Shown here: positions 4,826 through 30,624 of the stretch, piece after piece
How the letters are laid out: every line of letters begins with the position of its first letter
Position numbering within the stretch: the stretch's first letter is position 1
Sequence record: NC_001317.1
DNA length: 30,624 nucleotides
Origin: Escherichia phage 186
Strand: one strand, 5' to 3'
Made by a program: the position numbers and the translations under genes
Notes under the pieces: model-generated
The model's input: the letters and a program-made list of their open reading frames with translations, nothing else
Databases searched by the model: none
Told to the model about the DNA's origin: nothing

Positions 4826-5893
4826 ATGCGTCAGGAAACCCGTTTTAAGTTCAATGCCTATCTGACCCAGCTCGCCAAACTGAACGGCATCAGCGTTGAT
4901 GACGTCAGCAAAAAATTCACCGTCGAGCCGTCCGTCACGCAAACGCTGATGAACACCGTGCAGGCGTCATCCGCGTTTCTGCAGATGATTAACATTCTGC
5001 CGGTCGCAGAAATGAAGGGTGAGAAAATCGGTGTCGGTGTGACCGGCACCATCGCCAGCACGACCGACACCTCGGGCGACAAAGAGCGCCAGACCGCAGA
5101 TTTTACCGCGCTTGAGTCCAACAAGTACGAGTGCAACCAGATTAACTTTGACTTCCACCTGACCTATAAACGCCTCGACCTGTGGGCGCGTTTTCAGGAC
5201 TTTCAGCGTCGTATTCGCGACGCCATTGTCCAGCGTCAGGCACTGGATTTCATCATGGCCGGGTTTAACGGTACCACCCGCGCTGACACCTCTGACCGTG
5301 TTAAAAACCCGATGCTGCAGGATGTGGCCGTTGGCTGGCTGCAGAAATACCGCAATGAAGCCCCGGCGCGTGTGATGAGCAACATCACCGACGCTGACGG
5401 TAAAGTCGTTTCGGCAGTGATTCGCGTCGGTAAAAACGGCGACTATGAGAACCTCGACGCACTGGTGATGGATGGTACCAATACCCTGATTGACGAGATT
5501 TATCAGGATGACCCGAAACTCGTTGCCATCGTTGGCCGTAAGCTGCTGGCCGACAAATATTTTCCGCTGGTCAACAAACAGCAGGAAAACACCGAGTCGC
5601 TCGCGGCGGATATCATCATCAGCCAGAAGCGCATCGGCAACCTGCCAGCCGTACGTGTGCCGTACTTCCCGGCGAACGCGGTGTTCGTGACCACGCTGGA
5701 AAACCTCTCTATCTATTTCATGGATGAGAGCCACCGCCGCAGCATTGATGAAAACCCGAAAAAAGACCGCGTGGAAAACTACGAGTCGATGAACATCGAC
5801 TATGTGGTCGAGGCGTATGCCGCCGGGTGCCTGCTGGAAAACATCACCCTGGGCGATTTCACCGCACCTGCAGCACCGGAAGGCGGAGAGTAA
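4826..5893 (+). CDS. Major capsid protein (P2 gpN homolog)
   Basis: ORF-track start 4793 replaced by the internal ATG at 4826 (MRQETRFKFNAY..., SD AGGAA upstream), matching the P2 gpN N-terminus; 355 aa. Confidence 0.93.
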   Translation: MRQETRFKFNAYLTQLAKLNGISVDDVSKKFTVEPSVTQTLMNTVQASSAFLQMINILPVAEMKGEKIGVGVTGTIASTTDTSGDKERQTADFTALESNKYECNQINFDFHLTYKRLDLWARFQDFQRRIRDAIVQRQALDFIMAGFNGTTRADTSDRVKNPMLQDVAVGWLQKYRNEAPARVMSNITDADGKVVSAVIRVGKNGDYENLDALVMDGTNTLIDEIYQDDPKLVAIVGRKLLADKYFPLVNKQQENTESLAADIIISQKRIGNLPAVRVPYFPANAVFVTTLENLSIYFMDESHRRSIDENPKKDRVENYESMNIDYVVEAYAAGCLLENITLGDFTAPAAPEGGE

Positions 5894-26747: not shown

Positions 26748-28828
26748 CGGGTGTCGTTTACGCGTTTCCGTGGAATGCCCCACGGTCGGCAATAGCCAGC
26801 TCATATCTTACCTATGACCAACAGCATCGCCGCGACCGTATGTTCGCGGCTTTGCTGCATGCGAGAAAGGTGCTTTTTCTCCAGCCAGAATGTGTGCGCT
26901 TTGACGTTTATCGCACCGCTGCAGTTCTGGAGCAAAATCAGGGCAGTCAACGAGCCAATGCCTTTTTAATCAGCTTCTGCAAAAAGGCATTACCACGTCT
27001 TGAACTGGTCGCAAAAAAATACGAGTGCTCGGGCATCAACAGCAATGTATCAGCCGCTGTTTTCGATGGTCATTTTGATACCCAGCTTATGCAATATCTG
27101 GCGTCACGCATGGTCAATATGGTCGCCAGATTTAACCGCCTCCCGGATATGTCGCGCGCCGATATTGACCTGCTGGCCGCGGATATCGCTAATTTTATTC
27201 GCGCTGAACTGGCCGACATTGATGACACCGGATTTAGCGAACTCAAAACGCTGTACACTTGGTACATGCGCGCCGGTTTTATTTCCCTGCAATTCAACGT
27301 TACACCGCCGAAATGGGAGCGTGTGACTAAAAAATATTTTTGTGAGGATGAAATCGCACCGGCAGTAATGCGCATGTTTAATGAGGTTTGGTGGCGCGGC
27401 CGCTTGCGACGCATTGCGGCTGCATGGCGCGAACATCTGCAAATTGCAGTCGGCAACGTAAGCAAGAAACGACACGCATACGCGAGTAAAAACTGCGTCA
27501 CCGACTGGCGCGAGCAGAAGCGCCGCACGCGCGAATTTCTCAAGGGGCTGGATCTCGAAGACGAAGAAGGCAACCGCATCAGTCTGATTGAAAAATACGA
27601 CGGCTCGGTCGCTAATCCAGCAATACGCCGCTGTGAGCTGATGGCCCGCATTCGTGGGTTTGAAAATATCTGTAATGAGCTCGGTTATGTCGGGGAGTTC
27701 TATACTCTGACTGCACCGTCTAAATATCACGCCACCACCAAAGCGGGCTACCGTAACAGCAAATGGAACGGTGCAAGCCCGTCAGACACGCAGAGCTATC
27801 TCACAGGCCTTTGGGCACGCATACGCGCCAAGCTGCACCGGGAAGAAATCCGCATTTTCGGAATACGCGTCGCTGAACCGCATCACGATGGAACGCCGCA
27901 CTGGCATATGCTTATGTTCATGTTGCCGGAAGATGTCGAGCGTGTGCGACTCATCATCCGAGATTATGCGTGGGAGGAAGACCACTACGAACTGAGAAGC
28001 GATAAAGCCAAAAAGGCGCGCTTCCATGCTGAGGCCATTGACCCGGAAAAAGGCAGTGCTACTGGCTATGTCGCTAAATACATTTCCAAAAATATCGACG
28101 GTTATGCTCTCGATGGTGAAACCGATGACGAAAGTGGTGAGTTGTTAAAAGAGACTGCACCCGCCGTTTCAGCATGGGCGGCGCGCTGGCACATCCGTCA
28201 GTTTCAATTTATCGGCGGTGCGCCGGTGACGGTATACAGGGAGCTACGCAGAATGGCTGACCCTGAAACAGCCAGGGCGCTCAGTGTTGAATTCGCCGCA
28301 GTGCATGATGCTGCTCACTATGGACGCTGGGCTGATTATGTGAATGCTCAAGGCGGACCATTCGTTCGCCGTGACGATTTACAGGTACGTACATTGTATG
28401 AACCTCGAACTGAATTTAATCAGTATGGCGAAGAAACTGTGTGCATCAAAGGTGTCTACGATGCCTCGATAGGTGCTGGCTCTCCTATTCTAACCCGGTT
28501 AACGCAGTGGAAGATTGTTCCAAAGCGTGCCGTTGATTTGGCCGTTGACGTTAAGGGCGCTTCTGCGCCCTCTCGGAGTTCTGTCAATAACTGTACGGGA
28601 AGCGAAAGCGATCCACCGATACTCGATTTAACAAAACCGCTGAGTCGGCGTGAAAGACGAGAGTTGACGAACCGACTCAGGAAGAAAAAGCCAACAACAC
28701 GGCGAAAATTCATCCACGGAACGGATAAGCAAAACGTCGCTATAACGAAAACTATCGACGAGATACACTCTGACAACCGGCATCACAATCAGCCGGGGCG
28801 AAGCCCTGCACCTGATGGCCGGTGGTAA
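26744..28828 (+). CDS. A: Rolling-circle replication initiator endonuclease (P2/186 gpA family)
   Basis: 694 aa with the HUH-type motif (HHDGTPHWHMLMF) and active-site tyrosine region (GYVAKYISKNIDGYAL); last gene of the early operon. Confidence 0.92.
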   Translation: MTGVVYAFPWNAPRSAIASSYLTYDQQHRRDRMFAALLHARKVLFLQPECVRFDVYRTAAVLEQNQGSQRANAFLISFCKKALPRLELVAKKYECSGINSNVSAAVFDGHFDTQLMQYLASRMVNMVARFNRLPDMSRADIDLLAADIANFIRAELADIDDTGFSELKTLYTWYMRAGFISLQFNVTPPKWERVTKKYFCEDEIAPAVMRMFNEVWWRGRLRRIAAAWREHLQIAVGNVSKKRHAYASKNCVTDWREQKRRTREFLKGLDLEDEEGNRISLIEKYDGSVANPAIRRCELMARIRGFENICNELGYVGEFYTLTAPSKYHATTKAGYRNSKWNGASPSDTQSYLTGLWARIRAKLHREEIRIFGIRVAEPHHDGTPHWHMLMFMLPEDVERVRLIIRDYAWEEDHYELRSDKAKKARFHAEAIDPEKGSATGYVAKYISKNIDGYALDGETDDESGELLKETAPAVSAWAARWHIRQFQFIGGAPVTVYRELRRMADPETARALSVEFAAVHDAAHYGRWADYVNAQGGPFVRRDDLQVRTLYEPRTEFNQYGEETVCIKGVYDASIGAGSPILTRLTQWKIVPKRAVDLAVDVKGASAPSRSSVNNCTGSESDPPILDLTKPLSRRERRELTNRLRKKKPTTRRKFIHGTDKQNVAITKTIDEIHSDNRHHNQPGRSPAPDGRW

Positions 28829-29043
28829 AAGTTGTTTTAACGGTCGATGGGTGCGCGGAACGTCAAAAGGTGAAATCTTTGCTGCAGCTCCTTCACATCA
28901 GGCGAGACGCGGAAAATCCTTAATCGTGTTGCAGATTTAGCTGAGCTGGCAACGAAAATGTAACCGCTAATATTCATCCATATCATGTACATACAGTGTA
29001 TTTAACTGTGATTTTTTTCTTCACACCTTTTGCCAATACGTGC

Positions 29044-29063
29044 TACTGTATGTTTATACAGTA
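29044..29063. promoter_or_regulatory. LexA box (SOS operator) overlapping the promoter of the antirepressor gene
   Basis: TACTGTATGTTTATACAGTA fits the CTGT-N8-ACAG LexA consensus (17 of 20 against TACTGTATATATATACAGTA). A possible -35 TTGCCA (29031..29036) and -10 TATACA (29055..29060) overlap it. Confidence 0.8.
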
Positions 29064-29081
29064 TCTCGTAGTGGAGGTTGT

Positions 29082-29522
29082 GTGGATAGAGAGCTAAATG
29101 AGCACGTTATGATTGAGCGGGTCGAAATGATTGCGCGTCTGACTGCTGAAGGTACTTGTCAGGAAAGAGACCGTGAAATCGCATTGAATCTAATTGCGGA
29201 AATAGCAAGAGGCAACCTAATGAAAAATAATAATTTTTCTGTTGTTTTTTCCGCACCGCCTGTTGGTGAAACATTTGCAAAGGAGGGCAAAGTGAAAGTA
29301 AATATCACGTTGGATAAAGACCAAAAAATCGGCCAGCCGGTAATTGATGCTTTTCAGTGCGAATTGACCAAGCGAATACAGTCCGTTTTCCCGTCAACGC
29401 GCGTTACTGTTAAAAAGGGATCCATGACCGGTGTCGAGCTGATGGGGTTCGATAAAGATTCAGACCGCGAAGCGCTGGATAGCATCCTTCAGGAAGTGTG
29501 GGAAGATGAGAGCTGGCGTTAA
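29082..29522 (+). CDS. tum: SOS-inducible antirepressor with DinI-like C-terminal domain (186 Tum-type)
   Basis: GTG start at 29082 with SD GGAGG 5 nt upstream gives 146 aa. The C-terminal region ELTKRIQSVFPSTRVTVKKGSMTGVELMGFDKDSDREALDSILQEVWEDESW resembles DinI. Sits directly downstream of the LexA box; start-codon choice is inferred. Confidence 0.8.
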   Translation: MDRELNEHVMIERVEMIARLTAEGTCQERDREIALNLIAEIARGNLMKNNNFSVVFSAPPVGETFAKEGKVKVNITLDKDQKIGQPVIDAFQCELTKRIQSVFPSTRVTVKKGSMTGVELMGFDKDSDREALDSILQEVWEDESWR

Positions 29523-29547
29523 TCCCTGAAAAATGTGCAACCATCGA

Positions 29548-29578
29548 CCCCATGTTTGATAGCATGGGGTTGTTTTGT
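29548..29578 (+). terminator. Rho-independent terminator after the antirepressor gene
   Basis: CCCCATG-TTTGATAG-CATGGGG hairpin followed by TTGTTTTGT. Confidence 0.6.
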
Positions 29579-29603
29579 ATGGGATTACACACAAAGGAAA
29601 ATC

Positions 29604-30335
29604 ATGGATACCGTAATAGCATTTTTATCTCTGGCTCTCTTTATTGCTTTTATCGTCGGGTTAATCAAGCCGTCGCTGGTTCGAATGCCGAGCCGTAAGC
29701 GCTCCAGTGCTGTTTATCTCGGTGGCTGTCTGGCGCTGGGCGTTATTGGCTCAATCTTATGGCCGACTGAAAAAACTCAGCCGGTGGCAAAAACTGACGT
29801 ACCGGCGGTTAAAGCGGAACCGGCTACGCCAACGTTTGAGTACGCAGATAAAACCCTCAAAGAATATCGCAACGAGCCAAAAGAAACCCGGCACGAAATC
29901 GTTAAAGACTATGTTGGATTCAAAGGTGTGCAGGCCAGCGCTACCGATGTTTTTTATGCCTGTATGAGCGAGTACACTTTTACCAAAGATGATGCGTTAA
30001 AGCTCAGTGATGTGTTGGGGTGGTGTTTCAACGACTTCGAGAAAGATCCACAATCTCTGAATAATAAAATCAACCTTGACGAATTTCAGGGTAATTTTAG
30101 CGGTTGGGATGGCTCTTATCGCCCGTTAGAGAAGCTGATAAAAGCCAGTATGAATGATGATTCCTCTTATAAACATGTTTCAACGGTCTACCATCTGATT
30201 TTGAATAAAGACCCGCATGCCGTTGTAAAAACAACGTTTCGCGGCACTAATGCTTATGGTGGCGTGGTCAAACAGACCGTAGCAGCACGCGTCAACGTGC
30301 GAACGGGCGAGGTCGATTCAATACTCGACAATTAA
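29604..30335 (+). CDS. Membrane-anchored protein of unknown function (N-terminal TM helix plus about 200-aa soluble domain)
   Basis: ORF-track start 29535 would read through the terminator; the ATG at 29604 with SD AAGGAAA gives 243 aa. One hydrophobic helix (VIAFLSLALFIAFIVGLI), a second hydrophobic stretch (VYLGGCLALGVIGSILW), then a hydrophilic domain. Confidence 0.65.
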   Translation: MDTVIAFLSLALFIAFIVGLIKPSLVRMPSRKRSSAVYLGGCLALGVIGSILWPTEKTQPVAKTDVPAVKAEPATPTFEYADKTLKEYRNEPKETRHEIVKDYVGFKGVQASATDVFYACMSEYTFTKDDALKLSDVLGWCFNDFEKDPQSLNNKINLDEFQGNFSGWDGSYRPLEKLIKASMNDDSSYKHVSTVYHLILNKDPHAVVKTTFRGTNAYGGVVKQTVAARVNVRTGEVDSILDN

Positions 30336-30436
30336 ACATGACAAACGCCGCCGGTGCTGAAACTCGCTTTCAGTGCTGGCGGGGTTGAACAACGAGCCCC
30401 GCGAGGCGTTAGCCTACCCCTGAGCAACCGCCCAAG

Positions 30437-30464
30437 ACCGGTACTATTAAAGCCGGTTTTTTTA
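30437..30464 (+). terminator. Weak hairpin plus T7 run downstream of the last gene
   Basis: ACCGG-N11-CCGGT followed by TTTTTTT; the stem is only 5 bp. Confidence 0.3.
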
Positions 30465-30624
30465 TGCCACTTTTCCACGAATTTCCCGTTTTTTTAGCCG
30501 TGCATGCAACAGGTGCATTGTTTTGCATGCGTCAGGCTTGCCCGTTCTGGTTGTGCGTCGCCAGAGCTGGCGCGGCTCCAGAGTGGTCATGCAACTGCAT
30601 TAAAACCGACCCATAAAGTGGGCA

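Follow-up and report, generated by a model that had tools for sequence, protein, structure and literature searches.

Orf97 of Escherichia phage 186, a predicted periplasm-facing accessory protein and tentative candidate for SOS-timed superinfection exclusion

Membrane superinfection-exclusion proteins that block genome entry are known from several phages and include T4 Imm and Sp, P22 SieA, HK97 gp15, P1 Sim, and Ltp of TP-J34. These proteins are small and dispensable, reside at the cytoplasmic membrane, act on its periplasmic side, and are encoded near repressor or early genes. Accessory exclusion genes can also occupy the right end of P2-like genomes: the P2 annotation puts tin and old between A/orf91 and cosR, in agreement with what an earlier note on the DNA studied here had said. 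Phage 186 serves as a model in the study of genetic switches and of SOS induction. The last gene of its 30,624-nucleotide genome (NC_001317.1, analyzed in full and referred to here as the window), orf97, is listed as the second member of the phage's SOS operon and has no assigned function. Here, we describe the predicted topology, domains, relatives, and genomic addresses of Orf97. We tentatively predict that it acts in superinfection exclusion from the periplasmic face, timed in 186 by the SOS response; this is a possible function, although the overall balance still lies somewhat against it.

The open reading frame (ORF) that the earlier note had marked is real. The orf97 coding sequence (29604..30335, plus strand) has an ATG start, 243 codons, and a stop codon at 30333-30335, with AAGGA, a good ribosome-binding site, 6 nt 5' of the ATG. 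A longer GTG-initiated frame from 29535 was rejected; it would cross a terminator hairpin (see below), and all homologues begin at the MDT... methionine. The product is identical, residue for residue, to "Orf97 [Escherichia phage 186]" (AAC34191.1, NP_052294.1, Q37850_BP186), and full-length similarity places it in PHROG 3403, which covers residues 1-243 of 243 (E = 2.1e-139). In databases, it appears as "Orf97," as "hypothetical protein," or, in PHROG, under "unknown function," and the annotations of Vibrio phage VHML ORF47 and Peduovirus P2_2H4 carry the name orf97. A large protein database contains 163 homologous clusters at 90% identity, nearly all of about 243 amino acids (aa) and from Enterobacterales. 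When orf97 was compared with six homologues, the ratio of nonsynonymous to synonymous substitution rates (dN/dS) was 0.07-0.22, and this purifying selection indicates that the gene is in use. Since orf97 is an already catalogued gene (PHROG 3403) assigned to a published operon, the finding of the gene itself is not new. Full-text literature searches for orf97 turned up one relevant paper, and further searches gave nothing on the Orf97 family; within the limits of these searches, the topology, fold, domain-family size, and alternative genomic addresses of the protein seem not to have been reported before.

The earlier note had described an N-terminal transmembrane anchor. The anchoring is borne out, but the anchor is not one helix, as both Kyte-Doolittle hydropathy and the AlphaFold 2 (AF2) model give two hydrophobic helices. 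By hydropathy, they span residues 3-21 and 36-54 (peaks of 2.8 and 1.76), and the AF2 model places N-terminal helices at residues 2-21 and 31-52. The resulting membrane hairpin (29610..29765, plus strand) consists of a first transmembrane (TM) helix, TM1, at aa 3-21, a basic cytoplasmic loop at aa 22-35 (KPSLVRMPSRKRSS), and TM2 at aa 36-54. The loop contains five K/R residues, and no charge lies ahead of TM1, an orientation signal under the positive-inside rule. With a mean identity of 83%, it is also the best-conserved stretch of Orf97 and probably does more than set the topology. Residues 1-64 (29604-29795) match a second PHROG of unknown function as well (phrog_28655, 225-aa profile, E = 3e-4), and this match to the hairpin alone suggests that the anchor and basic loop may be a reusable module.

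The same soluble domain is held at the membrane by different means in other proteins: by a lipoprotein signal peptide with a lipobox in L021 (Oxalobacter), P0127, and P0133; by a cytoplasmic Zn-ribbon and one TM helix in L020, L026, and P0160; and by a cytoplasmic domain and one TM helix in L027 and P0143. Two cysteines, Cys120 and Cys141, do not vary among 55 sequences, and the Vibrio, Stenotrophomonas, Sulfurimonas, and Arcobacter homologues retain them. A periplasmic disulfide, which we predict that Orf97 probably contains, would be conserved in this way. Four independent lines, namely, the loop charges, the alternative anchors, the cysteine pair, and fold matches to periplasmic proteins, argue strongly that the C-terminal 165 residues lie in the periplasm after a flexible linker and that Orf97 is an inner-membrane protein, an N-out/C-out helical hairpin with its short, highly conserved basic loop on the cytoplasmic side.

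Beyond the hairpin, the protein comprises three parts. A variable Pro/Ala/Thr/Lys-rich linker (aa 55-77; 29766..29834, plus strand) is its least conserved segment, with a mean identity of 32%, frequent indels, and a predicted local distance difference test score (pLDDT) below 50 for residues 57-70. In the AF2 model as a whole, the mean pLDDT is 85, and it exceeds 90 across the whole soluble part, which forms a compact domain: residues 85-165 contain helices, and residues 173-242 add one more helix and four strands. The helical subdomain (aa 78-166; 29835..30101, plus strand) contains the invariant Cys120 and Cys141 and may adopt an HdeA/HdeB-like fold, its top fold matches being the periplasmic proteins HdeA, HdeB, and YmgD. 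The C-terminal module of one helix and four strands (aa 167-243; 30102..30332, plus strand), delimited with the AF2 model and a profile search, has a conservation of 80% and in Orf97 carries the motif FSGWDGSYRPLEKLIKxSMNDDSSYKH...FRGTNAYGG.

A profile search of the soluble domain, which the earlier note had proposed as a check, leaves its description as a domain of unknown function standing: neither the single sequence nor a 55-sequence profile matched anything in Pfam, NCBIfam, PADLOC, or PDB sequences. Foldseek against PDB gave nothing significant (best E = 0.12, weakly NTF2/SnoaL-like), and against the viral BFVD it returned only uncharacterized proteins, one "lipoprotein," and one "zinc ribbon domain protein." The family profile, on the other hand, matches 2895 representative clusters among 1.8 billion proteins. 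About 65 of these score below 1e-30, and the best-scoring matches mostly span the whole soluble domain; many of the 2895 match the last ~80 residues only (positions 160-242). The C-terminal module is found in Planctomycetota, Bacteroidota, Desulfobacterota, Verrucomicrobiota, candidate phyla, and others, usually preceded by a Zn-ribbon and TM helix or by a signal peptide, and the proteins that bear it are labeled hypothetical in every source. A scan of long distant homologues for fused domains found N-terminal Zn-ribbons and one bacterial PH domain only. Because it is spread so widely across phyla and has neither a Pfam model covering it nor a significant structure match, the C-terminal module is a real, old, unnamed extracytoplasmic module. 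Neither the sequence nor the fold of Orf97 reveals its function.

Synteny was counted in 80 close relatives in IMG/VR. In 66 of these loci, tum lies directly 5' of orf97 with conserved spacing; the order in 186 itself is LexA box, DinI-like tum, orf97, and cos end, which puts orf97 at the operon position before cosR. Twelve of the 80 are P2-type prophages that carry orf97 in the tin/old slot without tum or a LexA box. Their orf97 homologues are 77-80% identical, and their A protein is 36-37% identical to 186 A. Peduovirus P2_2H4 also has the gene in the P2 tin/old slot, annotated "Orf97." The reverse arrangement, tum followed by other genes and orf97 absent, occurs in the PSP3-group phages and in Klebsiella phage ST147-VIM1phi7.1 (Vimunumvirus). 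With orf97 in the A-cos slot of P2-type prophages and alternative genes there in PSP3 and ST147-VIM1phi7.1, this slot is variable, and the positional argument of the earlier note holds. In ST147-VIM1phi7.1 (L160 1098-2334), the replacement consists of a helix-turn-helix (HTH) gene overlapping a 316-aa "polymerase" gene, along with small ORFs, and looks like a different accessory or defense cassette in the same slot.

Other phages and prophages have the gene at further addresses. In Vibrio phage VHML, the orf97 homologue follows tail gene D. The order is cII <- -> cI - orf97 - int in a Brenneria prophage, with no terminator ahead of orf97; repressor, 209-aa gene, orf97, and int in a Mixta prophage; CI(S24), non-specific endonuclease, and orf97-like gene in a Sulfurimonas prophage; and S24 repressor and orf97-like gene in an Arcobacter prophage. 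In all four of these unrelated prophages, the orf97 homologue lies in or next to the lysogeny module, co-oriented with the repressor gene and downstream of it. The 209-aa protein of Mixta mediterraneensis (L019 4349-4978), whose gene lies 23 bp 5' of the orf97 homologue, has no Pfam match and a hydrophobic C-terminal tail (…FGFIFVIGFTVGALIF). In 186, the GC content of tum and orf97 is 45-46%, compared to 53% for the genome, and it is 41-48% across the tum-orf97 segment (28800-30200); this low GC content is consistent with horizontally acquired cargo. We strongly infer that orf97 is a dispensable, horizontally mobile accessory gene that lies outside the induction or morphogenesis machinery. Lysogenic conversion or exclusion is the typical role of genes that move among these kinds of address (repressor operon, end of the tail cluster, and A-cos slot), and this sharing of addresses is the main positive evidence for the exclusion idea.

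When Orf97 would be made in 186 depends on the sequence upstream. Gene A, encoding the replication nickase, ends at 28828. A perfect LexA (SOS) box, TACTGTATGTTTATACAGTA, follows 5' of tum (29044..29063, plus strand); it contains the sole CTGT-N8-ACAG match in the genome and is found at the same relative position in 61 of the 80 related loci. The antirepressor gene tum (29082..29522, plus strand) encodes 146 aa from a GTG at 29082, with a DinI-like C-terminal half: Pfam DinI matches residues 101-159 of the 160-aa tum ORF at 2.3e-17, and PHROG 189 matches from residue 15 at 4.8e-81. Relatives annotate it as "SOS operon TUM protein." Brumby et al. 1996 is reportedly the primary source for the SOS operon p95-tum-orf97. 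The SOS operon of 186, tum and orf97, has been described jointly as a system facilitating induction (PMC5322425).

Between the two genes, a terminator scan and RNA folding identified an intrinsic-terminator-like hairpin (29545..29580, plus strand) with a 12-bp GC-rich stem and a 4-nt loop, followed by UUUUGU (-30.2 kcal/mol, z = -3.3). It is kept in relatives and is present in most of the 80 loci. In a Chimaeribacter prophage (L009, ~4930-4975), its stem is rebuilt from different bases, CAGCCGCATA...TATGCGGCTG and then T7. Such conservation of structure despite changed stem bases identifies the hairpin as a real intrinsic terminator or attenuator. The L009 hairpin keeps the loop TTTGATA and the U-tract even though the genes upstream are different there, which suggests that hairpin and orf97 move together. 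We considered the TTGATA in the hairpin loop as a promoter element and rejected it, as it has no acceptable -10. A consensus scan of 186 or of a P2-type locus found no promoter belonging to orf97, with none convincing from the hairpin to orf97, and the stretch from gene A to tum yielded no terminator-like site.

From this arrangement, constitutive expression of orf97 in the lysogen is not expected, because a LexA box and tum precede it, and the strong terminator after tum means that read-through must be partial. In the mechanism that we propose for 186, LexA cleavage would allow partial read-through of the tum-orf97 terminator and so a low-level orf97 transcript, to which lytic transcription running through gene A may add, given that no terminator-like site was found from A to tum. 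Orf97 would then appear at prophage induction and not constitutively in the lysogen. Its periplasmic domain would hinder a periplasmic or inner-membrane step of rival phages, such as genome delivery or channel formation. The induced cell would be protected, as would the lysogen wherever the homologue sits in a repressor operon. The earlier note had named both superinfection exclusion and abortive infection as candidate roles; of the two, an entry block is the better fit for a domain that faces the periplasm.

Several points weigh against exclusion. There is no experimental phenotype on record for orf97, and no similarity was found to annotated exclusion or defense families (PHROG gave only unknown function, and PADLOC gave 0 families). 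The soluble domain is strongly conserved (80% for the C-terminal module, with the dN/dS values of 0.07-0.22), unlike what an arms race would leave. Moreover, non-phage genomes from many phyla commonly carry the C-terminal module, and this spread outside phages argues for a generic envelope-binding role that is not phage specific. Expression may be very low, with a strong terminator directly 5' of orf97 and no promoter of its own found. Lastly, the transcriptome text on Salmonella prophage BTP5 singles out tum as the highest-expressed prophage transcript and leaves the orf97 homologue unmentioned (PMC7067206); that text neither shows nor excludes termination after tum.

The conservation and spread of the domain also bear on an alternative, in which Orf97 is an envelope-fitness or conversion factor whose periplasmic chaperone-like or binding domain stabilizes the envelope under stress, be it SOS, acid, or other. 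The helical subdomain is closest to HdeA and HdeB, which are periplasmic stress chaperones, and to YmgD; the domain has changed little and is found widely beyond phages; and the lysogeny-operon address in several prophages fits conversion genes just as well as exclusion genes. We regard such a role as unlikely, though credible enough to be kept in mind.

Membrane-tethered immunity proteins against colicins and effectors, like T4 Sp, neutralize periplasm-acting enzymes or toxins. Orf97 could in the same way be a periplasmic inhibitor or immunity protein that neutralizes the murein hydrolase of an incoming tail, a bacteriocin, or a contact-dependent or type VI secretion system (T6SS) effector. 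Its tethered periplasmic domain with a disulfide candidate fits this description, the varied anchors (lipoprotein and TM) are typical of immunity proteins, and colicin operons are also under LexA control. The Sulfurimonas homologue directly follows a gene for a secreted-type non-specific endonuclease, and the C-terminal fold is weakly NTF2-like or cystatin-like. These fold matches are not significant, however (Foldseek E > 0.1), and no cognate toxin gene adjoins orf97 in 186 or in most relatives, where the downstream neighbors are mutually unrelated. On this evidence, we consider an immunity function quite unlikely. The Sulfurimonas locus itself, in a metagenome-assembled genome (L026 3498-5534), consists of a CI-like repressor gene (HTH and S24 peptidase), the endonuclease gene (Pfam 6e-40), and the Zn-ribbon-TM orf97-like gene, all in one orientation; the latter two may form a nuclease-partner pair within a lysogeny operon.

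The tight linkage to tum, seen with conserved spacing in 66 of 80 close relatives, raises the question of whether Orf97 helps the induction or lytic cycle of 186 together with Tum, for example in cell division, the envelope, or lysis timing after SOS. Treatment of the two genes together as a system facilitating induction points the same way (PMC5322425). Yet some tum-bearing phages lack orf97, and P2-type, VHML, Brenneria, and Mixta prophages have homologues with neither tum nor a LexA box. Tum is cytoplasmic and, going by the title of Shearwin et al. 1998, reportedly acts on CI, whereas the Orf97 domain is predicted to be periplasmic. In addition, orf97 is reportedly unnecessary for UV induction. 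A helper role in induction or the lytic cycle is improbable.

An abortive-infection toxin, that is, a membrane protein killing or arresting the infected cell, would suit a slot that holds the abortive-infection-type genes tin and old in P2, but it is hardly to be expected for a protein that has no PADLOC match and no pore-forming or enzymatic signature, that consists mostly of a folded periplasmic domain, and that, if induced by SOS together with the antirepressor, would as a toxin damage the phage's own induction. A role in lysis or morphogenesis was rejected, as relatives can do without orf97 and the gene changes its position; no PHROG or Pfam match to holin, spanin, endolysin, or structural families was found, and the gene is absent from the tum-keeping PSP3-group and Vimunumvirus relatives.

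The remaining features of the region concern the neighbors of orf97 and the right end. After the LexA box, tum has two in-frame start candidates, GTG 29082 with GGAGG and ATG 29109. Tum (29040-29522) joins an N-terminal part (PHROGs 37919 and 1993) to the DinI-like part; PSP3 encodes the two separately, as tumA and tumB (L161 2456-2875). On the other side, a structured 3' untranslated element of ~110 nt follows orf97 (30350..30462, plus strand; -50.8 kcal/mol, z = -3.3). It contains a 13-bp stem with three G.U pairs, which make the element strand specific, then a second hairpin, and then a hairpin with a U-run that is the probable operon terminator. No Rfam family was found for the hairpins at either end of orf97. 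The first ~70 nt of the 3' element recur 5' of the orf97 homologue in one P2-type locus, L149 (3780-3850), the placement in P2-type prophages being taken from the sequence of L149 alone. This recurrence on the other side of the gene makes it a conserved backbone element with orf97 inserted on either side.

As the earlier note had stated, orf97 is the last gene at the right end, with no later ORF that has homologues before cosR. The genome is complete and linear, with P2-like gene order, and starts with the cos sequence GGCGTGGCGGGGAAAGCAT; the extreme right end is given only approximately as 30606..30624 (no strand assigned), 19 bases that mark the end without delimiting a feature and that form the cos junction with 1-19. 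The closest phages in the collection belong to the genus Eganvirus, such as Erwinia phage EtG at 91.6%. We surveyed the gap downstream of orf97 in 83 loci including 186, from the orf97 homologue to the portal gene. Across the joined cos ends, this distance ranged from 489 to 2804 bp. Thirteen of the 83 loci, 186 among them, have no insert between orf97 and cos, and the others carry at least six unrelated families, so a fixed partner gene downstream of orf97 was rejected. Examples of the inserts are a 266-aa protein (L133 4864-5664), an opposite-strand 353-aa protein (L085 5266-6327), a 326-aa protein (L155 4753-5733), and a TM protein of ~200 aa (L108). These variable inserts place the hypervariable hotspot of 186-type prophages (L005-L018 and L080-L159) just downstream of orf97 and not in orf97 itself.

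The analysis yields predictions that can be tested, namely, a periplasmic, probably disulfide-bonded domain and a large family outside Pfam. Should phage exclusion by Orf97 prove true, the entry-blocking defenses would gain a new protein family, along with an example of induction-timed defense; to our knowledge, SOS-timed superinfection exclusion has not been described. The more ambitious picture, in which Orf97 would be the founder of an unrecognized, widespread extracytoplasmic family and a tethered entry block wired by LexA to induction and not to lysogeny, is doubtful. If it does not exclude phages, orf97 stays an ordinary conserved hypothetical accessory gene.

Orf97 has no detectable sequence relation to HdeA or HdeB (no Pfam match up to E = 1, and a PDB-sequence profile search finds neither), and it differs from HdeA, HdeB, and YmgD in its membrane tether and its fused second module; its cysteines are 21 residues apart, compared to about 48 in HdeA. 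The proteins built as Zn-ribbon, TM helix, and C-terminal module, together with the lipoproteins, have the last ~80 residues in common with Orf97 at 45-55% identity (shared consensus FSxWDGSH..L...IK..MNDPxSYxH...FRGKNAFGG). Most of these proteins lack the HdeA-like subdomain and the hairpin anchor, and many are not visibly in prophages; all are uncharacterized. P2 tin and old share the slot between gene A and cos with orf97, and both are nonessential, lower-GC cargo. They have no homology to Orf97, and they are cytoplasmic and transcribed leftward from their own promoter in the lysogen, whereas orf97 runs rightward behind a LexA box and a terminator and its product is predicted to face the periplasm. 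The membrane exclusion proteins show no PHROG similarity and no BFVD or PDB fold match to Orf97, and timing by LexA, as for orf97, would be unusual in this class. What Orf97 does share with them is its predicted anchored, extracytoplasmic architecture, and several of its prophage homologues share their repressor-side address.

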